Shown: piece after piece, positions 1,940-62,505 of the stretch
Layout of the letters: each line of letters begins with the position of its first letter
Position numbering within the stretch: position 1 is the stretch's first letter
Assembly (NCBI GenBank): GCA_038064915.1
Contig: JBBTSB010000006.1
Location: 4,864 to 68,863 of the forward strand
DNA: 64,000 nt
DNA from: Patescibacteria group bacterium
Lineage (GTDB): Bacteria > Patescibacteriota > Minisyncoccia > 2-02-FULL-40-12 > IGHO2-01-FULL-4-A
Reading direction: 5' to 3'
Made by a program: the position numbers and the translations under genes
Notes under the pieces: model-generated
Told to the model about the DNA's origin: nothing
The model's input: the letters and a program-made list of their open reading frames with translations, nothing else
The model's database searches: none

Positions 1940-4354
1940 GTGATGCAATATCAGAACGCTATTACATCACTACCTGAGCTTCTATTTCGTATGGAGGAAC
2001 AATACTTGGAAGACGTAGGAAACAGTCAAGCCCGAGACGACGGTGGACAACCATTTCCATTGCGCAAGATACTTCGCTGGATTGTATATACGGCAGCCTT
2101 TTTGGTACCGTTGTTGTTTTTGCCATTTACCTCGGATGTGCTCGACTTCAACAAAGAAGTGCTCATCTATATTCTTGCCGGAGCTGGACTCGTTTTGTTT
2201 CTGGTGGATATGATCAAGGAGGGGACGCTGCGGTACCGTCCGAGTACGTTCACCTGGCCGCTGATCGGATTGCTCGTTGCAGGCATTATTTCCGTGGCCT
2301 TTTCAGTCAATCGGTATACGAGCATCTTTGGAGTAGGAAATAGTCACTCGTTCTCACTCATGAGTTTGCTTTCCCTGGCAGTTTTGTTTTTTCTGGCCTT
2401 GCAAGTCATGGAAGATCGCGGCCGCACTCTACGCAATGTTTTTGTCGGCTCACTATCACTCGCTCTTCTCATTGGCGCTTTTCAAATGCTCGGAATTCAT
2501 ATCTTTTCCGGCGAAGCGTTTAGCAAGTCGAGCTTCAACACGATCGGGTCACTCAATGCCCTTGGATTTCTCGCTGCACTTCTCCTTCCCGTGTTTCTGA
2601 TTTCTCCGGGACGGAGTATGGATTGGCGCACGATACTCCTTCAAATCCTTCGCGGTATTGGATTTGCGTCGGCATTGTTTATCTTGATTGTTTTGAATTG
2701 GACGTATATTTGGATTGTGGCGTTTATCGGTGTTCTCGCCTACATTGCGTTCTCTTCTTCCAGCGAGGTCATTCATCGAAAAATGGCGTTTTTCGCATTT
2801 CCCATGGCCATTATCATTCTTGGCATTCTGCTGATAGTGATCAAATTCAACTGGACTTCCATAAAGGCTGATTTTCCTGTTGAAGTTTCACCCACCCATC
2901 GAATTTCCTACAGCATCGCCGGGGATGCTTTGAAAGCCAGGCCTCTCGGGTACGGACTTGAAAACTTCTCAATAGGATACGATAAACTTCGTCCTGCCGC
3001 ATCGGTCAATAATCTGTTGTTTCAGGCTCGATTCACTGACGCAACATCCGAATTTGCGACCATGGCGGTTGAGGGTGGAATTCCTATGATCGTGGCTTTC
3101 TTGGTGTTTTTGCTTTTTCTGGTAAGGGTGTTGTGGAAAAACATAAAAAATAAATTTGGCGGTGATGCTGACCATGGAAAATTGTGGGCATCGGCATTTG
3201 CTGCGGCTGTGGTTTTCTTCCTGTATCCAATTCCGTTGACCATCCTGTTTGTCTTTTTGTTCCTCATCGCACTTGGAGAACTGTCTTCGAGTAACGATGC
3301 ATCGTCTGAAAAGGTATTCAACCTTGAAGATCGCAGTGTGTATTCGCTGTTGGGCTCGGTAGGATTCATCGTCGGATTGGTTGCCGTTCTTGCGGGTGGG
3401 TATTTCATGGTAAATAAGTATATCGCAAATGTGCAGGTGGCTCATGCCTCGCGGGCCAGCAATGCCAATGATGCTATTGCCAGCCTGGTGGAAAGTATCA
3501 ACAGTTACCCGCATGATGCACGAAGCTACCGTATTCTTTCCCAAGTGCTGATTACACAGATCGCCGATGATCTCAAAAAGGGTCCTGTTGGTGTTTCTCA
3601 AGCTGAATTCAATTCTCAACTCCAAAATCATATTGCTTCCGTCATCAACGTGGCGGTGCGTGGGACGGAAGTGGATCCGTCGGATTCTGAAAATTGGATG
3701 AATCGAGGCTTTATCTATCAGAATCTTATTACTCTCGTCAATGGTTCTGATGAAGCGGCAATTAATATGTACAATGAAACACTTGCTCGGAGCCCGGCAA
3801 ATGCTCTTGCGCGCGTGCGCATTGGCAATATTCACTTGACGCTCGCTGACACGGCTCGCAAAAACAACAATCGAGAGGCGATCGAGACTCATTTGAAAGC
3901 GGCTGAAGATGAATACAAGGCGGCAATCGGACTCTACAACAACTACGGACAGGCGCTCTACAATCTGGCCGCTGTTTACGATCGAAAAGGGGAATTACCC
4001 CAGGCCATCAAGCAGTTTGAGCGCCTTCAAGCGACGAGCCCTCGGGATCCCAGTATTCTGTTTCAGCTTGGTCTTTTGTACTACCGCAACAATCAAAAAG
4101 ATGCCGCGCTTCGCGCGTGGGAACAGGCTGTGCTTTCGTTCCCGAATTATTCCAACGCTCGCTGGTACCTATCACTCATTTACGAAGAGCGAGGAGACTT
4201 GAAGAGAGCGTTGGCCGAAGTTGAGGCGATTGAAAAGCTAAATCCCGACAATGAGCTGGTCATTGAACGTTTGGAAGTTCTCAATGCCGGCCTCAGGCAG
4301 ATTATTCCTCCGGAGGATGTCTTAGATCAGACTCCGCTGAACAATGAGCAGTAA
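1940..4354 (+). CDS. O-antigen ligase/polymerase-like polytopic membrane protein with C-terminal TPR repeats
   Basis: 804 aa. At least ten hydrophobic helices in the N-terminal two-thirds. The C-terminus carries TPR-like repeats (YNNYGQALYNLAAVYDRKGE..., NYSNARWYLSLIYEERGD). Confidence 0.55.
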   Translation: MMQYQNAITSLPELLFRMEEQYLEDVGNSQARDDGGQPFPLRKILRWIVYTAAFLVPLLFLPFTSDVLDFNKEVLIYILAGAGLVLFLVDMIKEGTLRYRPSTFTWPLIGLLVAGIISVAFSVNRYTSIFGVGNSHSFSLMSLLSLAVLFFLALQVMEDRGRTLRNVFVGSLSLALLIGAFQMLGIHIFSGEAFSKSSFNTIGSLNALGFLAALLLPVFLISPGRSMDWRTILLQILRGIGFASALFILIVLNWTYIWIVAFIGVLAYIAFSSSSEVIHRKMAFFAFPMAIIILGILLIVIKFNWTSIKADFPVEVSPTHRISYSIAGDALKARPLGYGLENFSIGYDKLRPAASVNNLLFQARFTDATSEFATMAVEGGIPMIVAFLVFLLFLVRVLWKNIKNKFGGDADHGKLWASAFAAAVVFFLYPIPLTILFVFLFLIALGELSSSNDASSEKVFNLEDRSVYSLLGSVGFIVGLVAVLAGGYFMVNKYIANVQVAHASRASNANDAIASLVESINSYPHDARSYRILSQVLITQIADDLKKGPVGVSQAEFNSQLQNHIASVINVAVRGTEVDPSDSENWMNRGFIYQNLITLVNGSDEAAINMYNETLARSPANALARVRIGNIHLTLADTARKNNNREAIETHLKAAEDEYKAAIGLYNNYGQALYNLAAVYDRKGELPQAIKQFERLQATSPRDPSILFQLGLLYYRNNQKDAALRAWEQAVLSFPNYSNARWYLSLIYEERGDLKRALAEVEAIEKLNPDNELVIERLEVLNAGLRQIIPPEDVLDQTPLNNEQ

Positions 4355-5084
4355 GTATTGGAACGTCGTACCGATTGCCGTGCTAGTACTGATGGGAGCT
4401 TATTACATCCGCTATCACCCGAGTTTTGTCTTCATTCCCAACGATGTTCAGGTTGTCATCCCGGAAGGGACCAATATCGCTGACATTGATCGTCTCATTT
4501 CCGAAGCAGGAGTGTGGCCGCAAGGCACACTCCTGAAATCGGAGTATCTCTCTCTTGAAGGTACGCTGTTCCCCGATACGTACAGGTTTGATCGTGGAAG
4601 CACCGCGGAGGATGTTATTACTCGTATGCAAGCGGTGAAACCGCTGAATTCCGGACTTAGCGGTTTCACCGCTAAGTCACTGATCATCGCTTCCATGCTG
4701 GAGAAAGAAGTGCAAATCGAATCTGACATGCGTATTGTCACTGGTATCATAGAAAAACGCCTGGCGGCCGGTATGCCTTTGCAACTAGATGCTACCGTTG
4801 CCTACGGTGCCTGTCTACCGAGGTTTAACCTTGGTGAATACTGCGACGTGAGCCAAGTCAATCTTGTTGATAACATCAAGCGTGATTCAGCATATAATAC
4901 GTATACGAGGCGGGGACTGCCTGTCGGGCCGATTTCCAACCCCGGGCTGAAAGCCCTGCGTGCCGCAGAAAACCCGCACGTGAGCGATTACTGGTATTAC
5001 TTGAGTAAGCCGGACGGAACCACGGTGTTTTCAAGAACCCTAGAGGAACATAACACAGCAAAATGGCGTTTCTTCCCACGATAG
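4344..5084 (+). CDS. mltG: Endolytic murein transglycosylase MltG (YceG family)
   Basis: N-terminal TM anchor. YceG-like motifs: ASMLEKE, YNTYTRRGLPVGPISNPG. Confidence 0.75.
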   Translation: MSSKYWNVVPIAVLVLMGAYYIRYHPSFVFIPNDVQVVIPEGTNIADIDRLISEAGVWPQGTLLKSEYLSLEGTLFPDTYRFDRGSTAEDVITRMQAVKPLNSGLSGFTAKSLIIASMLEKEVQIESDMRIVTGIIEKRLAAGMPLQLDATVAYGACLPRFNLGEYCDVSQVNLVDNIKRDSAYNTYTRRGLPVGPISNPGLKALRAAENPHVSDYWYYLSKPDGTTVFSRTLEEHNTAKWRFFPR

Positions 5085-6442: not shown

Positions 6443-6478
6443 GTTCTGACTATTACACGATCGTGGTACAATCAGAAC
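6443..6478. repeat. 36-bp nested-palindrome repeat, copy 1 (GTTCTGACTATTACACGATCGTGGTACAATCAGAAC), overlapping a -10 box
   Basis: Outer inverted repeat GTTCTGA...TCAGAAC. Central perfect palindrome ACGATCGT. TACAAT at 6467..6472 lies 6 nt before the ATG at 6479. A second copy is at 7003..7038. Confidence 0.55.
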
Positions 6479-7000
6479 ATGGGTGGATATCCAAGTTATG
6501 GGATTCTCAACGAACTGGCAGAGATGCTCTCGTATAAGCCCCTAAAAACTATTTTACGGGATTTGCTTTTCGATAAGGTTTCACAGCGCGATGGCATCAA
6601 TAAAACAACGTTCGCGCGCAAAATGTATGATCTACAAAAGGGAAACTTTGTCACTATTAAGGGAGATCAAGTCACGGTTACGAAGAAAGGGTGGCAGCGT
6701 ATTGATTTAGAACGGATTGATAAGCTTCAATGGGATGATAAAAAACAAGATGGGTTCTTCCGTTTGATCATTTTCGATATACCAGAAAAACGCCGCAGAG
6801 CGAGAGATATATTACGTGAAAAGCTTCGAGAATTTGAGTGCCATCAAATCCAGAAAAGCGTTTTTGTGACACCCTACCGCTGTGAAGAGGTGATGAATGA
6901 GCTGGTCAAATTGTTACACGTTGAACGACATGTTCATATCATAAAAGCGGTCCACCTTGGACACGACGATGCGAAAGTTCGAAAACATTTTCGTAAGTAA
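6479..7000 (+). CDS. PaaX-like protein: N-terminal winged-helix DNA-binding domain plus C-terminal Cas2/VapD-like domain
   Basis: 173 aa. The C-terminus FFRLIIFDIPEKRRRARDILREKLREFECHQIQKSVFV matches the Cas2 beta1-alpha1 signature (hydrophobic strand, D, KRRRx, Q.SVF). The N-terminus looks like a wHTH. Confidence 0.45.
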   Translation: MGGYPSYGILNELAEMLSYKPLKTILRDLLFDKVSQRDGINKTTFARKMYDLQKGNFVTIKGDQVTVTKKGWQRIDLERIDKLQWDDKKQDGFFRLIIFDIPEKRRRARDILREKLREFECHQIQKSVFVTPYRCEEVMNELVKLLHVERHVHIIKAVHLGHDDAKVRKHFRK

Positions 7001-7002
7001 TT

Positions 7003-7038
7003 ATTCTGACTATTAAACGATCGTTGTGTGGTCAGAAC
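7003..7038. repeat. 36-bp nested-palindrome repeat, copy 2 (ATTCTGACTATTAAACGATCGTTGTGTGGTCAGAAC)
   Basis: About 27 of 36 positions match copy 1. Same outer inverted repeat and the same central ACGATCGT. Lies between two convergent genes. Confidence 0.55.
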
Positions 7039-9422: not shown

Positions 9423-9497
9423 GGGCGCTTAGCTCAGCGGCAGAGCACTGTCCTCACACGACAGGGGCCACTGGTTCGATCCCAGTAGCGCCCACCA
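9423..9497 (+). tRNA. tRNA-Val (anticodon CAC), CCA encoded
   Basis: Hand-folded cloverleaf: acceptor GGGCGCT/AGCGCCC, D-arm GCTC..GAGC, anticodon stem CTGTC/GACAG with loop CTCACAC, T-arm ACTGG TTCGATC CCAGT, then CCA. Confidence 0.85.
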
Positions 9498-9562
9498 AAC
9501 TACGAGGCCCCGGCGCTGTGAAGCGTCCGGGGCCCGCACGTTGTGCGTGGGAACTGGCCCTC

Positions 9563-10117
9563 TTAGGGCCGGAGAATTGCGTGAACGCGGTGAAACTTGT
9601 TGTTCACGAACTCGACGATTGCTGATTGCCCAGGAGCGACGTTGAAATCTGGCGAGCCGCGGTCACTTTGGCCCTTGGCAACCATGATGGTAACGCCGAG
9701 AATGCTCTGGTGCGTCACACACACGGCTGATTCCCGGTCTTGGAGAATGCGTGTAGAAACCGTGACCAGGAATTCAAGAGCAATCTCTCCGGCTACAACC
9801 GCCCGTTTCTGATCCGCCATGAAGAAATCATGAGCGGTGCCTTGGACCACGGGGTCTGCCCGCGAACCCAGGCGCTTAAACCTTCCGACCTGACACCTGC
9901 CCGGGCTCACAATTCCCCCGATCAGCTCCGCTGTCTGAAATGCCGATTGGTACTCGGAGCTGAAAAACCCTTGAACTTCTCCGGAGGTTTTCCATGTTCG
10001 AATCAGCTTGCCGGTCTGTTCGGCCATGGCTTCTCCAACGAAGGAGAGGGGCGAGGTTGGTTCAGCAGAAACAGCCTCCGCATGGGAGACGAGGTAGATA
10101 GTTGTTGTCTTTGGCAT
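9563..10117 (-). CDS. Histidine phosphatase superfamily protein (phosphoglycerate mutase/SixA-like), GC-rich
   Basis: Start taken at MPKTTTIYLVSHAE (an RBS-like AAGGACGG lies upstream). The SHAE motif sits in the position of the catalytic RHG. Confidence 0.55.
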   Translation of the reverse strand: MPKTTTIYLVSHAEAVSAEPTSPLSFVGEAMAEQTGKLIRTWKTSGEVQGFFSSEYQSAFQTAELIGGIVSPGRCQVGRFKRLGSRADPVVQGTAHDFFMADQKRAVVAGEIALEFLVTVSTRILQDRESAVCVTHQSILGVTIMVAKGQSDRGSPDFNVAPGQSAIVEFVNNKFHRVHAILRP

Positions 10118-10216
10118 GCCGTCCTTTCTCTCGACGTGTGAAAGTGCTGTCGCGTCTCGACTGTACCAAAAAACTGTGGTTTTGTAAACGTTCGTACTTT
10201 GTGATAAATTTCTTTT

Positions 10217-11773
10217 ATGACTAACCAAGTGAAAATCAGCAGCAATTGCAAACAACAATTTGAGATCACCTCTGATGATCTAATTTTTTATGAAAAAATG
10301 GCTGTGGCGGAGCCCGGATATTGTCCGCAATGCCGGATGCAAAGACGGCTTTTGCATCGCAATGAGCGTACGCTCTATCGGCGACCGTGCGACAAGTGTG
10401 GCAAAGATTCAGTGTCCATTTATCCGCCGGGTAAGTTTGTTGTCTACTGTAATCCTTGTTGGTGGGGGGATTCGTGGGATGGCAAAGACTCTGGGATTGA
10501 CTACGATCCCAATCGGCCGTTTTTTGAGCAATATATAGAATTGCAGTCAAAAGTCCCGCGTATCAATCTTTTGAGTATTACGAGCGTTAACTCGGAATAC
10601 ACGAACAACGCTGAAGACAACAAAAACTGCTATCTTATTTTTGCCGCGCAAAAAAACGAAGACTGTATGTACGGTCGGCTGGTCCAGCGTTGTAAGTCGG
10701 TGGTTGATACCGCATGGATTTATGACAGTGAGCTATGTTATGAATGTTTGGATGTTAGGAATTGCTACGGTTGTATGTACTGTGAGCGGTGTCAAACGAG
10801 CAAAGATTTATTGTTTTGCTTTGATGTGCGTGGCTCGCAAAACTGTATTCTCTCTACGAATTTGAGAAATAAAAACTACTATATAGAGAATAAGCAGTGT
10901 ACAAAAGAAGAATATGAAAAGAAAAAGAAAGAAATTTTGGCGGATATCGAATCTGCGAAAAAAAGATTCGAAGAGCTCAAGAGCCAGGCAATCGTGAAGT
11001 ATGCATTTCAAACCAAATGCGTAAACACGACAGGGGACTATCTCTACAACGTCCACAGCTCCCGCATGATGTTTGATACGGAAAACGCCAAAGATTGTGC
11101 CTATATGGCCGATGCCGAATCATCCGAAGATTGCATGGATGGCAACAACATGTATTATAAGCCCGAGAAGTGTCTCGACATGATGGGGGTTTTGCAAACA
11201 TCCAATTCTGCTTTCTGCACGTATGTATTTTATTGCCACGATGTTTTTTATTCCAATAGCCTCCAGAGCTGCGAAAATTGTTTTGGTTGTATTGGTTTGA
11301 AAAAAGCTAGCTATTGTATTTTAAATAAGCAATATACAAAAGAGGAATATGAGAAACTGCGAGAAACAATAATTTCAAACATGTCTGAATATGGAGACTT
11401 TTTGCCGCCTGAAACTTCACCGTTTAAATACAACGAAACACTTGCAAAGGATTATTTTCCAGATCCGGCAGCCGAAGAAATAAAGACTGGAACCTATGGC
11501 AAAGAGAATGGCAAGGATGTATTTGCGTGCGTGGACTGCAAAAAGAATTTTAAAATCACACCCAACGAGTTTGCTTTTTATGAACGCATGGGGCTACCAT
11601 TGCCGCTCAAAGACTTTGAATGCCGTATGCAGGATCGTCTTCGTAAACGCACACCCCGCAAACTCTGGCATCGCAACTGCATGAAGTGTGACAAAGATAT
11701 CGAAACGACCTACGCACCCGATCGTAAAGAAACGGTATATTGTGAGGCCTGCTACCAGGCGGAAGTCTCGTAA
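10217..11773 (+). CDS. Cysteine-rich protein built from internal duplications (terminal zinc-ribbon-like modules flanking two Cys-rich repeats)
   Basis: 518 aa. N-terminal module FYEKM..CPQCRMQRRL..CDKCGKD..VYCNPCWW mirrors the C-terminal module FYERM..ECRMQDRL..CMKCDKD..VYCEACYQ. Two central ~125-aa repeats each end in ..NC.GC...YCI.NKQ.TKEEYEK. Confidence 0.5.
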   Translation: MTNQVKISSNCKQQFEITSDDLIFYEKMAVAEPGYCPQCRMQRRLLHRNERTLYRRPCDKCGKDSVSIYPPGKFVVYCNPCWWGDSWDGKDSGIDYDPNRPFFEQYIELQSKVPRINLLSITSVNSEYTNNAEDNKNCYLIFAAQKNEDCMYGRLVQRCKSVVDTAWIYDSELCYECLDVRNCYGCMYCERCQTSKDLLFCFDVRGSQNCILSTNLRNKNYYIENKQCTKEEYEKKKKEILADIESAKKRFEELKSQAIVKYAFQTKCVNTTGDYLYNVHSSRMMFDTENAKDCAYMADAESSEDCMDGNNMYYKPEKCLDMMGVLQTSNSAFCTYVFYCHDVFYSNSLQSCENCFGCIGLKKASYCILNKQYTKEEYEKLRETIISNMSEYGDFLPPETSPFKYNETLAKDYFPDPAAEEIKTGTYGKENGKDVFACVDCKKNFKITPNEFAFYERMGLPLPLKDFECRMQDRLRKRTPRKLWHRNCMKCDKDIETTYAPDRKETVYCEACYQAEVS

Positions 11774-11847
11774 CTTGTAAGACTCTTAAACTCGTGGTAT
11801 AGTATCAACTATATCGTCCTGGAAAACGGGGCGAAGGAGGAATAAAG

Positions 11848-12066
11848 ATGAAGAGCGAACCCGAAGTCCGGGCGATGCTGACCAAGGCCCGGAAACGTTT
11901 GGAAGTGGGTGATGTCGGTTCGGGCAAGAACGATGCGGTCTGGACCGAGGCCAATGTTCTTCGAGATGTCCTCGGCTGGCGGGCCCTACCTACGTTCACT
12001 GATCCGTGTCTGGTCGACCAGCCGGACGCGCGAGATGACTCCCGCCCCAACGACCAGCGCGAGTAG
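11848..12066 (+). CDS. Small hypothetical protein in a GC-rich island; C-terminus DDSRPNDQRE is encoded by direct repeat 1
   Basis: 72 aa. Canonical RBS GAAGGAGGAATAAAG then ATG. Confidence 0.3.
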   Translation: MKSEPEVRAMLTKARKRLEVGDVGSGKNDAVWTEANVLRDVLGWRALPTFTDPCLVDQPDARDDSRPNDQRE

Positions 12067-12069
12067 CGG
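12034..12069. repeat. 36-bp direct repeat, copy 1 (GATGACTCCCGCCCCAACGACCAGCGCGAGTAGCGG)
   Basis: 35/36 identical to 12685..12720. Each copy supplies the last 10 codons and the stop of a small ORF. Confidence 0.7.
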
Positions 12070-12076
12070 AGGTACA

Positions 12077-12469
12077 GTGAAAACGCACAAAAAGTCTCCC
12101 ATTCGTCGTTACGTGCAGGACGCGGGGAAGCTCGAAGAGCTAGAGCGGGATCTTCAAAGAGTCGAAGATCCCGCGACTCCTGAAGAGGACCGGAATCGCA
12201 TCCTCTCGAAGTTCCAAGAGATCTTCGAGATCGAAGCGTTCACGTTCAAGCGGGTTGCCGAACTCGCTCGCGAGGCGATCGCAACCTCGCGCCGCCGAAT
12301 GCTCCTCCTGCAACTTGTGGAGGGAATGGATGTGATCATTCGAGGGGTGAGCAGGCCGGTTCGGGTACTCGCCCTCGATCGCCACAAGGGTTTGCTCCTG
12401 GTGAAGCGTCCAGGTAAGCTAACCTGGGTCTCACCCGAAGAAATCAACAACATCATTCTCACGAGTTAG
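12077..12469 (+). CDS. Hypothetical protein between the two direct repeats; putative GTG start
   Basis: 131 aa. GGAGG lies 4 nt upstream of the GTG. GC-rich. Confidence 0.3.
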   Translation: MKTHKKSPIRRYVQDAGKLEELERDLQRVEDPATPEEDRNRILSKFQEIFEIEAFTFKRVAELAREAIATSRRRMLLLQLVEGMDVIIRGVSRPVRVLALDRHKGLLLVKRPGKLTWVSPEEINNIILTS

Positions 12470-12477
12470 GAGGGCCA

Positions 12478-12717
12478 ATGGCAGCGAAACCGAACGCGAT
12501 ATTCGGGCTCATCGAGCGGGCAGGGACGCCCCTCGAGCTCAAGAACATCAACCTCTATTTCTTGCAGGGCGACTGGAGCCTTGGTGATAGCGCCCTGATC
12601 TTCGAGGCGATCGAAAGAAGGGCACGTGAACTCCACGTGGAGGTCACGGAGTTCGTTCCTCCTCCGGAAGTCCGGAGCAGGGGTGATGACTCCCGCCCCA
12701 ACGACCAACGCGAGTAG
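12478..12717 (+). CDS. Small hypothetical protein in a GC-rich island; C-terminus DDSRPNDQRE is encoded by direct repeat 2
   Basis: 79 aa. RBS GGAGGG then ATG. Confidence 0.3.
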   Translation: MAAKPNAIFGLIERAGTPLELKNINLYFLQGDWSLGDSALIFEAIERRARELHVEVTEFVPPPEVRSRGDDSRPNDQRE

Positions 12718-12720
12718 CGG
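12685..12720. repeat. 36-bp direct repeat, copy 2
   Basis: See 12034..12069. Confidence 0.7.
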
Positions 12721-12849
12721 TCTGCCCCGCGCGGACCGCGCAGCACTAACAGAGACGGAGGTGCGGCGGCGCTAACCACGCGTTGCCCCCTCCGGTCATC
12801 AAACTCAACCCCAAGAAGGGGATTTTTATTTTCTATCGCCCACCTTACA

Positions 12850-12877
12850 CCCTCCCTCTTACCGATAAGAGGGAGGG
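12850..12877. repeat. GC-rich palindromic hairpin element, class 1 (CCCTCCCTCTTA-CCGA-TAAGAGGGAGGG)
   Basis: Perfect 12-bp stem with a 4-nt loop. Shares the 20-bp core CCCTCTTACCGATAAGAGGG with the reverse complement of 30902..30925. Flanked by inverted repeat CCTTACACCC / GGGTGTAAGG. Confidence 0.7.
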
Positions 12878-12892
12878 ACGGGGAGGGAGATA

Positions 12893-12996
12893 GTGGATAA
12901 CTGCCCCTTGCTCGGGTGTAAGGCAGTGGTGTATGATGGTCGAGTGGTGGTGAGAAGTGGATAGAAGTGGGGATAACCACCCCAATCTGTGGATAT
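12893..12996. promoter_or_regulatory. Cluster of DnaA-box-like 9-mers, all in one orientation, followed by an AT-rich stretch upstream of mraZ
   Basis: Three 9-mers each 8/9 against the TGTGGATAA consensus: GTGGATAAC at 12893..12901, TGGGGATAA inside TGGGGATAAC at 12969..12978, TGTGGATAT at 12988..12996. AT-rich TTTTATAAGTAAAAAATAG follows. Confidence 0.3.
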
Positions 12997-13063
12997 GTAC
13001 GAGCAAACAGCTGACCGGACCTGTTCTTTTATAAGTAAAAAATAGTTGGCTGTTTGCTCATAC

Positions 13064-13498
13064 ATGCTCATAGGGGAATACAAACATACGTTGGATCCCA
13101 AGAAACGCTTAGCTGTCCCCGCTAAATTGCGCAAAGAAGTGGGTGAGCGGGCGGTCCTTACGCGTGGATTGGAAAACTGTTTATTTCTTTTTTCTATGAA
13201 AGAGTGGGAAGTTTTGGCGGAGAAGATTAGTCAGTTGCCCATGGGTCAGAAGGATTCTCGTGGATTTGCACGATTGTTGCTTTCTGGAGCCAGTGAAGTC
13301 GAGTTGGATCAGTTGGGCAGGGTGTTAGTGCCGGACTATCTACGAGATTACGCAGGGCTCCAAAAAACAGTGATTGTGGCAGGAGTGGGGAAGAGGTTAG
13401 AAATATGGGATGAAGCAAAATGGAATGTGTATAAGCAGAAATTGGAAAGTGACGGAGATGCCATAGCAGAAAAGTTAGGTGAGATTGGCATGATCTGA
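13064..13498 (+). CDS. mraZ: Transcriptional regulator MraZ
   Basis: Start taken at MLIGEYKHTLDPKKRL. Two MraZ-type repeats. Heads the dcw cluster. Confidence 0.8.
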   Translation: MLIGEYKHTLDPKKRLAVPAKLRKEVGERAVLTRGLENCLFLFSMKEWEVLAEKISQLPMGQKDSRGFARLLLSGASEVELDQLGRVLVPDYLRDYAGLQKTVIVAGVGKRLEIWDEAKWNVYKQKLESDGDAIAEKLGEIGMI

Positions 13499-24400: not shown

Positions 24401-24442
24401 CCCCCTCGAAGTCCCCCTTATAGATAAGGGGGAAGGGGGTTA
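24398..24442. repeat. Nested GC-rich palindromic element, class 2 (TAACCCCCT-CGAAGT-CCCCCTTAT-AG-ATAAGGGGG-A-AGGGGGTTA), probably also the dnaK terminator
   Basis: Inner stem CCCCCTTAT/ATAAGGGGG and outer stem TAACCCCCT/AGGGGGTTA. Same architecture as 41992..42036. Begins at the dnaK stop codon. Confidence 0.7.
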
Positions 24443-24456
24443 TGATATAATGAGTC

Positions 24457-25266
24457 GTGTCTAAAATTATCTCTATCATCACGACAGTCACGCTTATATC
24501 CCTTGGGTTTTGGATTACCGCAGAGCCGTGGGTGAATAGCGAGACAAAGTTCAGTGATCCGAGTCTGTGGATCGCTCCTGCGGCGGTGCTGATCGTGTTT
24601 GCGGCGGTAATTTCACTTGGCTACATGTTGTTGCCGCAAAAACGGCTGAAGCTATTATTGGCAGGGCTGATTGGTTCCACTTACCTCGTAATCTTCGGTG
24701 TTCACTATCTAAACATCATCGCTTTTTTTGTCATCATTCTTTTTCACGTCTTTGCCATCCGTGCCATCCACCTCGAATCCGAAGAACGTCTCAAAATCCA
24801 CCCGATTCACATCATCCGTCGGGGAATCACTGAGGTCATGCTTCCGCTGTACTTTGCCCTCTCGTTTGCGTATTTTTTGAGCCCCTCAATCCAGGAGCGT
24901 GTAAAAGATCCCGTTCTTTCGCCTAGTCTCAAACAAGCCGTGAGTCGTGTGATGGATGAGTTTTTGGAGGCGGAAAAGAACATTCCCCAGGCGCAAAAGC
25001 AAATTGCAAAAAACTATGCATTGGAACAAACCTATGATACTATTACCCGCTGGAGCGATCCCTATCGTGTCTACTTTCCACCGGTGCTGGCGTTTGGATT
25101 ATTCCTAATGTTGTGGGGTCTGGGGTTTGCCTTGCACTGGTTGAGTACATGGATTGGAGCGCTTTTATTTGTCCTTTTGCGCAAAACCAAATTTGTTGTT
25201 ATTGAAAAAAGAAACATAGAAGCCGAGCACATTGCACTATGGCAGCAGACTACTACCAAACTTTAG
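24457..25266 (+). CDS. Hypothetical polytopic membrane protein
   Basis: 269 aa with at least five hydrophobic helices. Confidence 0.4.
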   Translation: MSKIISIITTVTLISLGFWITAEPWVNSETKFSDPSLWIAPAAVLIVFAAVISLGYMLLPQKRLKLLLAGLIGSTYLVIFGVHYLNIIAFFVIILFHVFAIRAIHLESEERLKIHPIHIIRRGITEVMLPLYFALSFAYFLSPSIQERVKDPVLSPSLKQAVSRVMDEFLEAEKNIPQAQKQIAKNYALEQTYDTITRWSDPYRVYFPPVLAFGLFLMLWGLGFALHWLSTWIGALLFVLLRKTKFVVIEKRNIEAEHIALWQQTTTKL

Positions 25267-29965: not shown

Positions 29966-31303
29966 TTACACGACCGTGATTGGGTCTACGTCAATTTGCC
30001 AGTCGGGGGGGAGGTTACGCAGAAGGTTTAAAGTTTCAGGTTTAAAGTTTAAAGTGGGGGCGCTCTTCAGAAGTACATTCCAGACATAAAGTCCGCGTTC
30101 GCGGAAAATGAGGGCGGGGTAGGGGACGCCGCCGAGTTTCGTGGCCATGTTTTGTGCGACTTGTTTTGCGATTCTTGCGTCACGATTCTTATACGTAAGT
30201 TTTATGAGTTTCGTAAACGGGGGATAATCAAACTGTTTGCGGAACTCCAGCTCGCGCTTCCAAAACTCGTCTACGGTTCCCGTCGCGGCGGCTACGAGTG
30301 CCGGATCTTCGGGATTGTAGGTTTGGATGATCGTGCGTTCGGACATGGAGGCCAGGAGGAGGGTTTGTTTGAGGAGCTTCTCTTCAGCACTGTAATCAGG
30401 GATATTAATTAATGCATCTGCATTCATGATGCAGAGAAAAGGCACTTTAATGTTTTGATTAAAAATACTTTGCGTGGCAAGCAAAATTTGCCAGTCTTCA
30501 CCGATCTTCTTTGACTCCGAGGTAAGCTTCGCGATTTTTGGAGCTTTTAGATTTTGATAGTTAAAGAATTTGAGGAGTTCGGTTTCTACTTTTTCTATTC
30601 CTACGCCACGACCTTTCAAATTATATCCTTTGCACTTTGGGCATTGTTTTGGTTGTGGCACTTGGTAACCGCAATGGTGACACTCCAAATTTTGATGAAC
30701 AACTAACGATGCGGAGCAGCTGGGGCAGGTAAACATGTGGCCGCATGATTCACATCGTAGAAAATTTGCGTAGCCTTTGCGCGGGATGAAGATAATAATT
30801 TTATCGTAGGTTTGCAAAGCCTCTTTGAGATGACGAGAAAAAATAGAGTAGTTTGCATCGCGTATCTCTTTTCTCATGTCTACGATCCGTATCTCCCCCC
30901 GCCCCCTCTTATCGGTAAGAGGGGGAAGGTCCAGAATTGGACCTGGGGAGATATATTTCTTGAAGTTTTTCTCTTCTGGATGCAGGAAAACCGCTCGCAT
31001 AGTAAGACCGAGAGAGATGAGGTAGTAGTCAGAAAGCTCTTGGGCTTTTTTGATGTGCTCTCCGGTGACGTTTTTTTTGAGAACTTTATCGATTTTTTTG
31101 AGAGTAAAATCAGCCTGCTTTTTAAATTGCAGTTTGCGCTCGGCAAGTGAGGCGGAAGCGACCACGACTGCTTTGATTTTGCGATTGTGAAACAAAACCT
31201 GGACGACGGAACCAACCGGCAGGGGAGTAGAGTGGAAATAGCTCACGATTTGGGGTTGATTCCGGGGCAGGAAAACAAGGGGTATGACGTCCAAAATAAC
31301 CAT
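29966..31303 (-). CDS. priA: Primosomal protein N' (PriA)-like protein lacking helicase lobe 1 (no Walker A/B)
   Basis: N-terminus is the PriA 3'BD-like domain (PLPVGSVVQVLFHNRKIKAVVV). Cys-rich CxxC x4 region CESCGH..CPSC..CHHCGY..CPKC. Helicase lobe 2/C-terminal domain with IIIFIPRKGYANFLRC. No GxxGxGK(T/S) anywhere in 445 aa. Confidence 0.55.
   Translation of the reverse strand: MVILDVIPLVFLPRNQPQIVSYFHSTPLPVGSVVQVLFHNRKIKAVVVASASLAERKLQFKKQADFTLKKIDKVLKKNVTGEHIKKAQELSDYYLISLGLTMRAVFLHPEEKNFKKYISPGPILDLPPLTDKRGRGEIRIVDMRKEIRDANYSIFSRHLKEALQTYDKIIIFIPRKGYANFLRCESCGHMFTCPSCSASLVVHQNLECHHCGYQVPQPKQCPKCKGYNLKGRGVGIEKVETELLKFFNYQNLKAPKIAKLTSESKKIGEDWQILLATQSIFNQNIKVPFLCIMNADALINIPDYSAEEKLLKQTLLLASMSERTIIQTYNPEDPALVAAATGTVDEFWKRELEFRKQFDYPPFTKLIKLTYKNRDARIAKQVAQNMATKLGGVPYPALIFRERGLYVWNVLLKSAPTLNFKPETLNLLRNLPPDWQIDVDPITVV
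30902..30925. repeat. GC-rich palindromic hairpin element, class 1 (CCCCCTCTTA-TCGG-TAAGAGGGGG), in-frame inside priA
   Basis: 10-bp stem with a 4-nt loop. Its reverse complement shares 20 bp with the 12850 element. Encodes PPLTDKRGRG in the priA frame at the junction where the ATPase lobe is missing. Confidence 0.7.
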
Positions 31304-31317
31304 GGTATAATGCTACT

Positions 31318-32559
31318 ATGAACCCCGCAGAAATACGAGTCCGTTTTCCGCCCTCGCCCACGGGCTTTTTACACATAGGCAATATACGCACCTTTGTGTT
31401 TAATTGGCTATTTGCAAAACAAAACAAGGGCATGATTGTGCTGCGTATGGAGGATACCGATAGGGAACGGTCTGAAAAACATTTTGAAAAATTAATTATT
31501 GAGGATTTGAAGTGGCTCGGTTTGGATTATGATGAATTTGGTGGCCGCCAAAGCGAAAGAACGGACATTTACAACAAATACCTCAAGCAATTACTTGATT
31601 CGGGTGAGGCTTACGAAGATGACGGTGCAATAAAAATAAAAGTTGATACGGGTAAAACGATTATTTTTGATGATGTCATCCGAGGTCGTATAGAATTTGA
31701 TACAAAGCATGAAAAGGATTTTGTGATAGCGCGAAATCTCGACTCGCCGCTATATCACCTCGCAGTGGTAGTGGATGATTACGAAATGCGGATTTCACAT
31801 ATTATTCGTGGCGAGGATCATATTGCGAATACGGCAAAGCATATCTTACTTCAAGAGGCACTGGGATTTACTTCGCCGATCTATGCGCATTTGCCGCTGA
31901 TTCTTGGTTCTGACAAATCAAAGCTCTCCAAGCGTCATGGGGCAGTGGCACTCGATGAATATAAAGAGCAGGGCTTCCTACCTGATGCGATGTTTAATTA
32001 TCTTGCGATACTTGGCTATACGCCGTCGGCAGAAATTATTTCTCGGGAAGAACTCATCAAAGAATTTGAGCTTACCAAAATCCATAAAGCGGGCGCGGTG
32101 TTTGATATCAAGAAGCTGGAATGGATAAATGGAGAATACATAAAGAAAATGTCGAATGATGAACTGTTGGCGACGATCGGACAGAAGTATGAAAAGATAT
32201 TGCCGATGGTGCGAGAGCGGATGAAAAAAAAGAGCGATCTTGAAGAGTTTGATTTCTTCTTTGAAGCTCCGACGGTAGATCCTGAACTCTTGAAGTGGAA
32301 AAAAGCCAGCCTCGAAGAATCAAAAGCAATGCTTGCACAGGTGAAAGAAATAATAGAACAAACCGGTTTAGAAGATATACGTGCAAAATTGGATGCCATA
32401 GGGGCAGGGGATAGGGGACTCGTTTATTGGCCCTTTCGGGTGGCTTTGAGCGGCCGCAAGGCATCGCCTGATCCCGTAGATATTGCTATAATACTTGGTA
32501 AAGATGAAGTTCTGCGAAGAATTGAAAATGTAAATATCAAAGATCAAAATGACAACTAA
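31318..32559 (+). CDS. gltX: Glutamate--tRNA ligase
   Basis: PSPTGFLHIGN (HIGH motif) and KLSKR (KMSKS motif). 413 aa. Confidence 0.85.
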   Translation: MNPAEIRVRFPPSPTGFLHIGNIRTFVFNWLFAKQNKGMIVLRMEDTDRERSEKHFEKLIIEDLKWLGLDYDEFGGRQSERTDIYNKYLKQLLDSGEAYEDDGAIKIKVDTGKTIIFDDVIRGRIEFDTKHEKDFVIARNLDSPLYHLAVVVDDYEMRISHIIRGEDHIANTAKHILLQEALGFTSPIYAHLPLILGSDKSKLSKRHGAVALDEYKEQGFLPDAMFNYLAILGYTPSAEIISREELIKEFELTKIHKAGAVFDIKKLEWINGEYIKKMSNDELLATIGQKYEKILPMVRERMKKKSDLEEFDFFFEAPTVDPELLKWKKASLEESKAMLAQVKEIIEQTGLEDIRAKLDAIGAGDRGLVYWPFRVALSGRKASPDPVDIAIILGKDEVLRRIENVNIKDQNDN

Positions 32560-41560: not shown

Positions 41561-42498
41561 AATTGCAAAAATCTATCCGTATGAGCTTTCCAGGAAAAAT
41601 TATTTGTGAGTGCAGGTTTTGGCATAGCCAATCCCCTGCTAATTCCATCAGCAATGCCATCAACCGTTGGCTGGCAATAAATTGCATAATCGCCAAGTAG
41701 CTCATGAGCTACGTCCGTATCGGCAACTACGGGTCTCACTCCCCTAGCCAGAGCTTCCAACGGCGGCAATCCAAATGCTTCCGTATCGGATACATACACA
41801 AATAGTCTGGCATTTTTATATAATTCTTCAAGCTTCTCATCAGTTACTCTCTCATAATATTCCACATCCAAATTTAATTTTGGATTATACTTATCTACAC
41901 CGACAACGATCAATTTAACTCCTAGTTTTTTGCAGGCCAAGATCGTCTCTCGTGCATGACGTCGTGGGAACATCTGACCAACGTATAATACATAACCCCC
42001 TTCCCCCTTATCATAAGGGGGACTAGAGGGGGTTATCCCCAGATAATTTACAAAAATTCTTCTGCTATCTATGCCAAATAATTTTGCCACGTTCTTGCCA
42101 GAAGTTTTAGAATAGACGCTAATCATAGTTGCCTTGCGGGCCGCGTGATTACTAAAGATTTTGTAGGCCAAGCGATATCTAAAAGGCAAATCTTTGCCGT
42201 GCATTTCGCGATGCAAGTCCTCCGTGAGCGCAACAATCGTCTTACAAAAAATGCCATAAGGTAGCATGTAATTGGGAAAAAAGACGATGTCGGGTTTCGT
42301 GAGCCAAATCTTGATAGGCAAAATAATATAATAGTACAAACTGAAACTCGGTATCTTGCCTTTATAATAATAAATAAATTTAAACTCTTCTGTTTTGGGC
42401 AGGTTTTTGATGAGCTCTTTGACCGTGCGGCCGATCCCCCACGAATCGCCTTCACCCGACTCGCATTCGATACCGATTTTTATCATAATCTCTAGCAC
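41545..42498 (-). CDS. Glycosyltransferase family 4 (GT-B fold)
   Basis: C-terminal EAFGLPPLEALARGVRPVVADTDVAHELLGD is the typical GT4 E-x7-E region. Confidence 0.7.
   Translation of the reverse strand: MLEIMIKIGIECESGEGDSWGIGRTVKELIKNLPKTEEFKFIYYYKGKIPSFSLYYYIILPIKIWLTKPDIVFFPNYMLPYGIFCKTIVALTEDLHREMHGKDLPFRYRLAYKIFSNHAARKATMISVYSKTSGKNVAKLFGIDSRRIFVNYLGITPSSPPYDKGEGGYVLYVGQMFPRRHARETILACKKLGVKLIVVGVDKYNPKLNLDVEYYERVTDEKLEELYKNARLFVYVSDTEAFGLPPLEALARGVRPVVADTDVAHELLGDYAIYCQPTVDGIADGISRGLAMPKPALTNNFSWKAHTDRFLQLCRNM
41992..42036. repeat. Nested GC-rich palindromic element, class 2 (ATAACCCCC-TT-CCCCCTTAT-C-ATAAGGGGG-ACTAGA-GGGGGTTAT), in-frame inside the GT4 gene
   Basis: Inner and outer stems as in the dnaK-proximal copy. 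Translated in the GT4 frame it gives ..SSPPYDKGEGGYVLYVG.., an insertion just before the conserved GT4 core. Confidence 0.7.
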
Positions 42499-50951: not shown

Positions 50952-51065
50952 TTATCCTTGACGTTGTTTATGCTTGGGGTTTTTACAAATACAGAAAAGT
51001 TTCCCCTTGCGGCGAACGATTTTGCACGAATTGCACATCTTTTTTACTGATGCTCTTACTTTCAT
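50952..51065 (-). CDS. rpmJ: 50S ribosomal protein L36
   Basis: Not in the ORF track because it is under 60 aa. Hand translation gives [37 protein letters not shown]. Lies between infA and rpsM, as in most bacteria. Confidence 0.8.
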
Positions 51066-51066
51066 A

Positions 51067-60752: not shown

Positions 60753-60823
60753 CGGGCTGTAGTGTAACGGTAGCACGAGACGTTTGGGACGTTTTAGTCC
60801 GAGTTCGAATCTCGGCAGCCCGA
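60753..60823 (+). tRNA. tRNA-Pro (anticodon TGG), C1-G72 acceptor
   Basis: Acceptor CGGGCTG/CAGCCCG, anticodon stem AGACG/CGTTT with loop TTTGGGA, T-arm CCGAG TTCGAAT CTCGG. Its 3' end overlaps the left inverted repeat by 3 nt. Confidence 0.8.
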
Positions 60824-62347
60824 CAAAAAGCAACGTTCGGAAAAATCAGGCTCCGCACTCCGCCGCGCCGAAGGCGCGAATGGAATGGTGGGGGTGAATC
60901 CGGCGAGACTGGAAGCCAAAAATTGAAAGGGTGGGGTGAGAGTCTGGGAGAGGGAGCGGTCGGTAAGTTTTGGGTTCGTTCCGAGTTTTGGCAAAAGTTG
61001 CCTCATCTCGTGATAATTTTCGGAGGAAGCCAGGAAACTGGCTTTTTTCGTGTCCAAAATGAATTGTCTGACGGGTTCGAGCGGATTTGCGGTTGTTTGT
61101 CCATGATCTTGTTTTTGGTCGGCAAGGGAAACTTTCTGTTTCAGCAGCTCTTCCTTTTTAGCAAGATAACTTTCCTTGGGAATATCACCGTCAATATATG
61201 CGCTAACTAATTTATCCAGTTTCTCTTGCGTCTCATGTTGTTTCGCTTTGATGTCTCGGACGAACGACTGTGATGAGTGGACTGATTCCTTTTCTTCCTT
61301 ATCTACTTCCTTGAGCATCCAATCAGTCCACTCATCGGGGAGCGCGATAGATTGAAGCCGTGCCTTAATTTGGAGGACAAGATCTTTTTCTTGGAGGTAC
61401 TTTTGATTACAGAGGCCGCGCTTCTTGGTGCATCGGTAATACCGATAGATACCGCCATGAGCACCCTTTGCCCATTGAGCGGTGATTGGAGAATTACATT
61501 CACCACAGGTCATCATCCCGATAAAGGGAAAGTCATGGCGAATCTTTGATTTGCGCGGCCGGGATCTATCCTTCAATATATCTTGCACGGCTTCAAAAGT
61601 TGTATGATCGAGAATCGGCGGAAACTTTCCTTCGTAGTATTCACCTTTATGAGCGATCAACCCAAGGTACGCTTTGTTCGAGAGCATAATCCTCACATTC
61701 GCTTTTGCAAGTGGCGTTCGGTGTCTAGCCTCAATACCGTAGCCCGCCAAAAACTCTCCCATTGATTCGAGAGTGTACTTTCCGGTCGCATATTCCTTAA
61801 AAGCGCGAAGGATAATTTTGGATAGTGTCGGATGTGGATCAATCGTTCGCGTCTTTGGATTGTTCACGTAGCCAAAGGGGGCTTTGGTGAGCCATTCTCC
61901 GCGACGGAGTTTTTGGCGGATACCACGCTTTACGTTTTCAGAAAGATTATCTGAATAATATTTGGATTGACCGAACGCCACTTGGAGCATGAACAATCCT
62001 TGGGGTGTAGGTTCGAACCAAAATGTCGGAAATCGCAAAGAAACTATCTTGGTGGTATCTATGGCGTAGATGACTTGCCCACCATCAACGGAGTTACGAG
62101 CTAACCTATCTGGATGCCAAGCGAGCAAGCCGACAGGTTCACTTGATGAGGCAACTTTTGCCATCATTTGATTAAAGATTTCTCTGCCTGGTTTCTTTGC
62201 GCTTTTCGACTCGATGAAAGTCTCGGCAATCAAAATATTTTCTCTCTTCGCGTATTCAGTGAGTTCAGCAAGTTGAGCTTCAATACTCATTACTTGCCGT
62301 TCCTCATCTTCCGTAGATTTACGAGCGTAGAGAAAATATTTTGTCAT
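60794..62347 (-). CDS. Large serine recombinase (resolvase/invertase catalytic domain, recombinase domain, zinc ribbon, coiled coil)
   Basis: N-terminus YARKSTEDEERQVMSIEAQ (catalytic Ser region). DRLARN. Zn ribbon CGECNSP...YYRCTKK..C. The C-terminal 57 or so codons lie inside the left inverted repeat. The ORF reads through into the tRNA-Pro 3' end. Confidence 0.8.
   Translation of the reverse strand: MTKYFLYARKSTEDEERQVMSIEAQLAELTEYAKRENILIAETFIESKSAKKPGREIFNQMMAKVASSSEPVGLLAWHPDRLARNSVDGGQVIYAIDTTKIVSLRFPTFWFEPTPQGLFMLQVAFGQSKYYSDNLSENVKRGIRQKLRRGEWLTKAPFGYVNNPKTRTIDPHPTLSKIILRAFKEYATGKYTLESMGEFLAGYGIEARHRTPLAKANVRIMLSNKAYLGLIAHKGEYYEGKFPPILDHTTFEAVQDILKDRSRPRKSKIRHDFPFIGMMTCGECNSPITAQWAKGAHGGIYRYYRCTKKRGLCNQKYLQEKDLVLQIKARLQSIALPDEWTDWMLKEVDKEEKESVHSSQSFVRDIKAKQHETQEKLDKLVSAYIDGDIPKESYLAKKEELLKQKVSLADQKQDHGQTTANPLEPVRQFILDTKKASFLASSENYHEMRQLLPKLGTNPKLTDRSLSQTLTPPFQFLASSLAGFTPTIPFAPSARRSAEPDFSERCFLSGCRDSNSD
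60821..60965. repeat. Left copy of a 145-bp inverted repeat
   Basis: Reverse complement of 62361..62505 with about 95% identity (differences are confined to two short patches). Confidence 0.85.
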
Positions 62348-62360
62348 ACTTTTTTTGTAT

Positions 62361-62505
62361 TACCGACCGCTCCCTCTCCCTGCGATTCACCCCACCCTTT
62401 GAATTTTTGGCTTCCAGTCTCGCCGGATTCACCCCCACCATTCCATTCGCGCCTTCGGCGCGGCGGAGTGCGGAGCCTGATTTTTCCGAACGTTGCTTTT
62501 TGTCG
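62361..62505. repeat. Right copy of a 145-bp inverted repeat
   Basis: See 60821..60965. Encodes a duplicate C-terminal peptide ..FLASSLAGFTPTIPFAPSARRSAEPDFSERCFLS in a spurious plus-strand ORF. Confidence 0.85.

Follow-up and report, generated by a model that had tools for sequence, protein, structure and literature searches.

A GC-rich three-gene islet with a 36-bp direct repeat between tRNA-Val and mraZ in a groundwater patescibacterium

Described systems that come close to the locus considered here include the following two kinds. Among integrative elements that target the 3' end of resident genes, e14 and phage 21 reportedly insert in the 3' end of icd in Escherichia coli and carry a replacement 3' end. 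A second route, homology-facilitated illegitimate recombination of the type associated with de Vries and Wackernagel, is said to operate in naturally transformable bacteria, and to our knowledge it has never been shown in Patescibacteria. The locus lies in a stretch of 64,000 nucleotides (nt), referred to as the window, of contig JBBTSB010000006.1 (assembly GCA_038064915.1), a groundwater Patescibacteria metagenome-assembled genome (MAG) from Hainich. Judged from its sequence, segment 11774-12891 of the window is a self-contained and compositionally foreign transcription unit, with a predicted promoter, three cistrons each led by a Shine-Dalgarno (SD) sequence, and a structured 3' end; we refer to it as the islet. 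The first and third of its open reading frames (ORFs) end in the same ten amino acids (aa), encoded by the two copies (R1 and R2) of a 36-bp direct repeat (R). We regard this duplication as a true recombination trace, while a role as the attachment site (att) of a mobile element is not demonstrated. The features of the islet are as follows.

11775..11803, plus strand: sigma-70-like promoter, TTGTAA-17-TATAGT with TG, predicted by consensus scan; abuts the stop codon of the gene for a 518-aa zinc-ribbon protein
11848..12066, plus strand: ORF1, 72 aa; SD AAGGAGG; G+C content (GC) at codon positions 1/2/3 = 0.70/0.45/0.71; taken as positionally orthologous to the lone small ORF at the related locus L005
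12034..12069, plus strand: repeat copy R1, the last 10 codons of ORF1, TAG and CGG; its final two G's are part of the ORF2 SD
12070..12720, plus strand: 651-bp unit, with the rest of the ORF2 SD, ORF2, and ORF3 with R2; extra relative to the one-gene L005
12077..12469, plus strand: ORF2, 130 aa, GTG start, between the R copies; strict orphan
12478..12717, plus strand: ORF3, 79 aa; SD AGGAGGG; tail predicted to be disordered
12685..12720, plus strand: repeat copy R2, the last 10 codons of ORF3, TAG and CGG
12717..12832, plus strand: structured 3' untranslated region (3' UTR), predicted from folding and reading of the sequence, with two GC hairpins, CCCC-AAGAA-GGGG at 12809-12821 and a T-run at 12822-12832

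The repeat, GATGACTCCCGCCCCAACGACCA(G/A)CGCGAGTAGCGG, occurs at 12034-12069 and 12685-12720, a spacing of 651 bp that leaves 615 bp between the copies. The two are identical at 35 of 36 positions; no third copy was found within the 64-kb window with up to three mismatches allowed, and 100 dinucleotide shuffles gave no match. Both copies are in phase with the codons at their start and encode DDSRPNDQRE followed by TAG, and the one G/A difference (CAG/CAA) is synonymous in the frame of ORF1 and ORF3. At the nucleotide level the identity extends 3 nt beyond the stop codon (CGG) and drops from 35/36 to nothing within one codon on either side, the downstream contexts of R1 and R2 being unlike each other. 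The internal dyad of R is weak (7/8 with an 11-nt spacer, by direct reading), and the folding of the two copies is no better than that of shuffles (z = -0.7 and -1.7). An initial annotation of this DNA had already reported the repeat and the shared decapeptide with its stop codon at the end of two small ORFs of 72 and 79 aa, and both reports hold, the latter by translation. The 131-aa ORF that it placed between the copies is present as well, with a corrected length of 130 aa from GTG, or of 144 aa for one gene caller, which starts at an ATG within R1.

The arrangement is reproducible. At NCBI the islet carries the locus tags AAB420_02165/70/75, and at least five assemblies contain the locus, all with its genes arranged alike (three from Logan runs, an NCBI MAG, and the NCBI/ENA records of a 69.6-kb contig). 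The islet DNA is 100% identical in the four contigs that were aligned, and each of the six contigs with ORF1 or ORF3 has both R1 and R2. No strain variants came up when MraZ, the 518-aa protein, ORF1 and ORF3 were looked up by exact match.

Compositionally, the islet is the most deviant part of its surroundings. No other high-GC run of the window is as long or as rich as 11801-12960 (58.4% versus a mean of 46.6%, with a peak of 66%), segment 11774-12891 has 58% GC versus 47% for the window, and the islet is the top tetranucleotide outlier (z = 5.35), at a distance reached by only one of 229 sliding windows, which itself overlaps the islet. All three islet ORFs are preceded by an SD motif (AAGGAGG at 11834-11840 for ORF1, GGAGG at 12068-12072 for ORF2, and AGGAGGG at 12468-12474 for ORF3), versus 1 of 58 other genes of the window when a 5-mer SD is scored; SD use in the window is confined to GC-rich islets. 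GC by codon position (high, low, high) changes frame exactly at the boundaries of the three plus-strand ORFs, which therefore look like genuine genes with a GC-rich evolutionary background. A common foreign composition runs through ORF1, the 651-bp unit and the 3' UTR. The promoter and terminator of the islet are predicted from sequence matches, and the consensus scan revealed no promoter-like site inside the 651-bp unit. The fold of 12700-12900 reaches -95.3 kcal/mol (z = -7.1), and the terminator was read directly, its 4-bp stem being below the reach of the terminator scan. What the initial annotation had said of this region, namely that 11800-12900 is GC-rich, that its canonical SD sequences are rare among the host genes, and that it contains a palindrome at 12850..12877 and CCCC-AAGAA-GGGG plus a T-run (12809-12832), is borne out throughout, and the windowed GC and tetranucleotide profiles are not uniform.

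The relative that informs most on the history of the islet is locus L005, the only one that keeps the 518-aa gene (80% aa identity) beside mraZ (MraZ 85% aa identity). Homology with L005 ends at the stop codon of the 518-aa gene and resumes at AGTGGATAACT, with 168 of 211 positions identical by blastn from window position 12892. Between these points, L005 has a slot of 387 bp versus 1118 bp in the window, occupied by one GC-rich ORF of 66 aa with the SD AAGGAGG. Its predicted promoter, read as TTGACT-17-CACAAT, has the same placement as in the window, with the -35 box at the stop codon of the preceding gene, and its leader measures 75 nt versus 74 nt for ORF1, with a global alignment reached by 8 of 2000 shuffles. 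The body of the L005 ORF is unrelated to ORF1; promoter position, leader, SD and size match. At its C-terminus is a single diverged tail, DDSARPIDFR versus DDSRPNDQRE in the window, in each case directly before the stop codon. Among 22,381 ORF C-termini in 1.3 Mb of relatives this tail is the best match, and it lies in the syntenic slot; when the L005 segment was shuffled by dinucleotides, 3 of 3000 rounds yielded an ORF with a C-terminus as good as this one. On these grounds we take ORF1 to be the positional orthologue of the L005 gene and the tail to be an old feature of the gene in this slot, and the comparison supports the view that the 651-bp unit is in effect an indel whose limits are set by the tail. 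Identity is 97% between R1 and R2 but only about 70% between either of them and the L005 tail; insertion after the split of the two lineages is therefore the simplest polarity, and we infer an insertion here rather than a deletion in L005.

Further, the 30 nt before R2 align to the L005 gene (1 of 500 shuffles), whereas the 30 nt before R1 do not (45 of 500). Because of this resemblance and because the tail is used in frame, both weak pointers, ORF3 seems to be itself a tail gene of the slot type rather than cargo that reads into an attachment site. The initial annotation had taken the repeat geometry as att-like, left by site-specific insertion of a cassette of roughly 650 bp into the 3' end of a small gene with the C-terminus regenerated. 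The geometry agrees with the one gene and one tail of L005; the site-specific mechanism is not supported, no recombinase having been found nearby. Regeneration of the C-terminus is not required, since the ORF3 tail is in frame and about 20 nt before its repeat resemble the L005 gene, and two tail-bearing genes with their own copies therefore fit better. Nor does the GC-rich island coincide with the cassette: ORF1, the unit and the 3' UTR are alike in composition, and the L005 gene is also GC-rich and SD-led. As for the empty site with a single repeat copy that the annotation had proposed to look for, L005 offers a single diverged tail behind a matching leader, and the six contigs include no conspecific single-copy variant.

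The proteins themselves are orphans. ORF1-3 have no match in Pfam, PHROG, PADLOC or NCBIfam, and hence none to the toxin, antitoxin or defence families covered there. The database searches suggested at the outset were run and returned self matches only, with no family or fold: three word-indexed searches among 5.8e9 proteins found ORF1-3 themselves, an exhaustive phmmer (HMMER) search of 1.84e9 representatives found only ORF2 itself, and phage DNA, plasmid DNA, phage tblastn and viral contigs gave no match to the islet, so that a donor or homologues elsewhere were not found. In single-sequence AlphaFold2 models, ORF2 has four helices and a small SH3/Sm-like beta-barrel (predicted local distance difference test, pLDDT, 69.8), and ORF3 (pLDDT 77) has a three-helix bundle (residues 5-51) and a stretch of 20 last residues, including the tail, that is predicted to be disordered (pLDDT 53-59). 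Foldseek found no significant fold match for either model in PDB or BFVD, the likeness of the ORF2 barrel to Hfq or SH3 domains being weak and not significant (E about 1). Matches of ORF2 to the hepatitis delta virus delta antigen (Pfam E = 0.1; PDB 1a92 E = 0.54) were discarded as noise from its N-terminal helical segment. The tail, shared by three unrelated small proteins in two species, may be a functional C-terminal module, and the decapeptide is a candidate short linear motif.

The slot in which the islet sits is, from the sequence comparisons, a tRNA-adjacent and lineage-variable region that ends at the putative MraZ boxes of the dcw operon. Its landmarks outside the transcription unit are the following.

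9423..9497, plus strand: tRNA-Val(CAC), called by ARAGORN and Rfam; left landmark of the variable region
12850..12877, no strand assigned: host-type palindromic element CCCTCCCTCTTACCGATAAGAGGGAGGG, with a related copy at 30895-30923
12893..12995, plus strand: right-hand limit, recurring GTGGATA / GTGGGGATA boxes ahead of mraZ, read from the letters; L005 homology resumes here

In an MraZ-anchored metagenome scan, tRNA-Val(CAC) was found upstream of mraZ on the same strand in at least 24 relatives. The spacer between the two is 3566 bp long in the window versus 197-400 bp, with 30-34% GC, in six relatives (L092-L095, L097, L126); it is 260-400 bp in the nearer ones (MraZ 70-75% identical) and shortest, 197 bp, in L126 (MraZ 65%). 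In the window the spacer contains a GC-rich islet beside the tRNA, the 518-aa gene, and the three-ORF islet. GC-rich islets of small SD-led ORFs are present at the same position in L005 (MraZ 85%) and L089 (89%), the closest two of the relatives, and in L120; the ORFs of these islets and of the window share no similarity beyond the tail, and none of the relatives' islets has an internal repeat like R. The islet of the window thus has the deviant composition, the predicted promoter and terminator, and the absence or difference at the same site in relatives by which small genomic islets and morons are recognized.

The explanation we favour, with a probability of roughly 0.4, is that a second tail-bearing allele was added by homology-anchored recombination. 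A small GC-rich gene with a short, disordered, acidic tail (DDS-RP-D-R) would already have occupied the slot in the common ancestor with L005. After the split, a 651-bp piece with ORF2 and the unrelated tail gene ORF3 would have been added right behind ORF1, the donor being a hypothetical conspecific slot variant with the order ORF2-ORF3-tail-3' UTR-mraZ. The right joint would be a homologous crossover in shared sequence (the tail, the 3' UTR or mraZ), and the left joint would be illegitimate, at a CGG microhomology 3 nt past the ORF1 stop, which would complete the SD of ORF2 (GG joined to AGG). Each gene would bring its own conserved copy of the tail, and the repeat would therefore be sharp-edged and 97% identical over 36 bp. 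DNA uptake is generally attributed to Patescibacteria, and we infer that the piece arrived by recombination.

Several observations weigh against this explanation. No conspecific allele with the order promoter-ORF2-ORF3-tail was seen, and the donor is hypothetical. The same sharp-edged repeat is predicted by a small-circle insertion of the Campbell or att type. In L089, whose MraZ is the most similar (89%), the islet lacks the tail, which is thus not universal in the slot, and the similarity of the L005 tail to R is not significant at the nucleotide level. The polarity rests on parsimony with L005 as the one informative relative, and the similarity between the sequence upstream of R2 and L005 comes from a post-hoc test on 30 nt.

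An unlikely alternative, though one to be taken seriously, is that a promoterless circle of about 651 bp, carrying ORF2 and ORF3 with its site, integrated Campbell-style at the 3' end of ORF1 with a recombinase acting in trans, the ORF1 C-terminus being regenerated. The near-identical, sharp-edged repeat would suit such an event, its 36 bp being, as general knowledge has it, a typical length for core sites of tyrosine integrases. Consistent with it are also the one-copy state of L005 with an ORF1-like promoter, leader and SD, the lack of a promoter-like site within the unit between the repeats, and the position of the slot in a tRNA-adjacent variable region. However, of the marks of an att duplication the direct repeats are present but an adjoining integrase was not found. 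Precomputed Pfam matches show no recombinase within 10 kb on either side of the islet, and the unit itself has no integrase. In the whole 64 kb, the sole recombinase found is a large serine recombinase at 60794-62347, 48 kb from the islet, in a survey (scan of 58 ORFs, with 25 of 76 families listed) that could have missed a distant tyrosine recombinase. Large serine recombinases yield hybrid attL/attR sites, not long direct repeats. R as the attachment site of this enzyme was accordingly rejected, being the wrong type of site and 48 kb away. Moreover, the composition of the unit is the same as that of ORF1 and the 3' UTR, the reading frame of ORF3 would need to run on through the attachment site, and R has only a weak internal dyad. 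The six contigs, the viral collection and the 1.3 Mb of relatives contained neither an empty site, nor a circle, nor a second R-flanked unit or cassette. On balance, an att cassette is less likely than recombination between tail-bearing alleles.

The serine recombinase merits mention in its own right. Encoded on the minus strand (517 aa, with Resolvase, Recombinase and Zn_ribbon_recom domains), it abuts the 3' end of a tRNA-Pro gene and is framed by inverted repeats of 146 nt (60821-60966 and 62360-62505, 96% complementary), one arm of which lies in its 3' coding end. Together with these repeats it may form an invertible or mobile unit.

Rather improbable, in our estimate, is an old tandem duplication, in which ORF1 and ORF3 would be ancient paralogues, ORF2 a later arrival, and the tails held alike by selection on the peptide together with short-tract gene conversion. 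The bodies of ORF1 and ORF3 without their tails give a global alignment that beats 992 of 1000 shuffles, the proteins are similar in size, ORF3 being predicted helical, the motif V..P..R stands just ahead of the tail in both, and the sole R1/R2 difference is synonymous. Against this, the local alignment of the bodies is at the level of chance, identity is lost within a codon on both sides of the repeat, conversion on 36 bp of identity is inefficient by general knowledge, and L005 has one gene only.

That R serves as attachment site for a novel type of minimal cassette in Patescibacteria, without integrase or promoter, and the decapeptide as an exchangeable tag, its partner perhaps the ORF2 barrel, strikes us as quite improbable. 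Such a cassette would enter the coding 3' end of a small resident gene in Campbell fashion and rely on the promoter of that gene, and all cassette proteins would acquire one common C-terminal decapeptide. We give still less credence to a role of the 36 nt as nucleic acid, whether as an RNA or DNA site for a regulator or for ORF2 or through translational coupling, with the peptide as a by-product and the operon acquired with both copies in place. The identity at the nucleotide level, which runs 3 nt beyond the stop codon, the contribution of R1 to the ORF2 SD, and the weak, non-significant Hfq/SH3 likeness of the ORF2 barrel (E about 1) are in its favour. However, R folds no better than shuffles (the z values above) and has no Rfam match, the two copies are followed by different sequence, and the L005 copy is kept at the peptide level and not at the nucleotide level. 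An RNA element was likewise rejected as a candidate: Rfam (at gathering thresholds or E<=1) is empty save for spurious miRNA-type hairpin matches, and the R copies fold like shuffles.

A chance repeat or a chimeric assembly of foreign DNA, conceivable for a MAG with a repeat shorter than many assembler k-mers, can be ruled out for practical purposes by the at least five concordant assemblies (four aligned at 100% identity), the 0 matches in 100 shuffles, and the GC-rich islets at the same site in relatives.

Three other known classes were considered and rejected. An integron cassette array does not apply, with no IntI found, no repeat after ORF2, and no attC-type symmetry in R. A diversity-generating retroelement was dismissed as well, there being no reverse transcriptase in the Pfam matches within 10 kb on either side or in the families listed for the window, and the repeat being 36 bp with one G/A difference. 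A CRISPR array was set aside, the two copies being 615 bp apart and both within coding sequence.

Additional observations concern the neighbourhood of the islet. A second GC-rich islet (9498-10150, 57-58% GC) lies directly 3' of tRNA-Val(CAC) and contains a minus-strand ORF of 154 aa (9563-10027, or longer, from MPKTTTIYLVSHAEA...) with no Pfam match; it is typical tRNA-adjacent foreign DNA. The 518-aa protein (10217-11773) has treble-clef zinc ribbons at either end and is one member of a very large family of paralogues found across Patescibacteria, for which one scan confirmed 587 relatives. Different paralogues of it stand upstream of mraZ in L005 (247-1866 and 2573-4138, side by side) and in L089 (745-2364). 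At the end of the L089 islet (3228-3268) is a tRNA-like minihelix, CCGGCGCG-AAGT-GAGGTTCGAATCCTC-C-CGCGCCGG, with a canonical T-loop, which neither ARAGORN nor Rfam calls as a tRNA and which may be what is left of a tRNA-type attachment site contributed by a GC-rich donor.

On the right side, the GTGGATA / GTGGGGATA boxes lie at 12893, 12957, 12967 and 12989. L005 has kept them (4527-4630), and L089 carries the first one in inverted orientation. These boxes probably form the MraZ operator, and they mark where the variable slot ends on the right. A hairpin with 17-nt arms (12995-13011 and 13049-13065, 94% complementary) covers the sequence immediately ahead of mraZ and reaches into its start; it is conserved in L089 (3426-3499), and Rfam spuriously matches it to mir-30 in the two genomes. 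It may help to control the transcription or translation of mraZ.

The palindrome at 12850-12877 is one of several short, G/C-capped, intergenic palindromes (CCCTCTTACCGATAAGAGGG, CCCCCTTAT..ATAAGGGGG types), others being at 30895-30923, 24410-24444 and 41991-42024, and they are read as host elements of the repetitive extragenic palindromic (REP) type or as terminator hairpins. A different palindromic element of 35 nt (TTCTGAC...TCAGAAC) is present in two copies, 6444-6478 and 7004-7038, 83% identical, that flank a 173-aa PaaX_M/Cas2-like gene (6479-7000); the upstream copy holds the -10 box of an apparently leaderless start. In many host genes a TAnnnT -10-like box stands 5-8 nt ahead of the start codon (for example at 6465-6481, 24443-24459, 31304-31320, and 51050-51066 on the minus strand), which suggests that leaderless mRNAs are widespread in this patescibacterium.

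If the favoured explanation, recombination between tail-bearing alleles, is right, the locus would be a clean, small case of a streamlined episymbiotic bacterium stacking orphan genes beside essential genes, here in the tRNA-Val/dcw slot. The persistence of foreign, SD-dependent genes in a host that mostly does without SD sequences raises the question whether, and how, they are expressed. The scope is modest, and only proof that the 651-bp unit moves by a site-specific mechanism would alter current views.

Compared with known systems, the islet resembles several in part. Like integron arrays and integrative mobile elements exploiting the host XerCD (IMEX), it has a promoterless, recombinase-less cassette between repeated sites with a predicted resident promoter upstream; unlike these, it has no IntI, attI or attC-like imperfect palindromes, and R, located within coding sequence, does not resemble dif. 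As in the orphan modules of polymorphic toxins (cdiA-CT/cdiI, rhs) and pilS-type cassettes, unrelated modules are stacked with a short conserved block as a possible recombination handle. Here, however, the block is C-terminal and spans 10 codons, each gene has its own start and SD, and there is no similarity to toxins or immunity proteins. With elements that target 3' ends (tRNA islands, as well as the e14 and phage 21 named at the outset), the islet shares a repeat of the target 3' end that flanks the insert while the target end stays intact; it differs in that no integrase was found, the insert is 651 bp, the element-side copy doubles as the coding end of an element gene, and neither an excision product nor an empty site was seen. 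Homology-facilitated illegitimate recombination offers one homologous anchor and a microhomology joint (here CGG), with no need for an element-encoded enzyme. The closest likeness of the islet as a whole is to morons and small genomic islets. It differs from morons in lying outside a prophage, in the internal 36-bp repeat that gives two cistrons one C-terminus, and in having SD-dependent genes in an SD-poor host. It shares with them a promoter of its own and a terminator-like end, deviant composition, variable presence, orphan cargo and a tRNA-adjacent variable region, and by this analogy the islet as a unit would work like a moron or small genomic islet.

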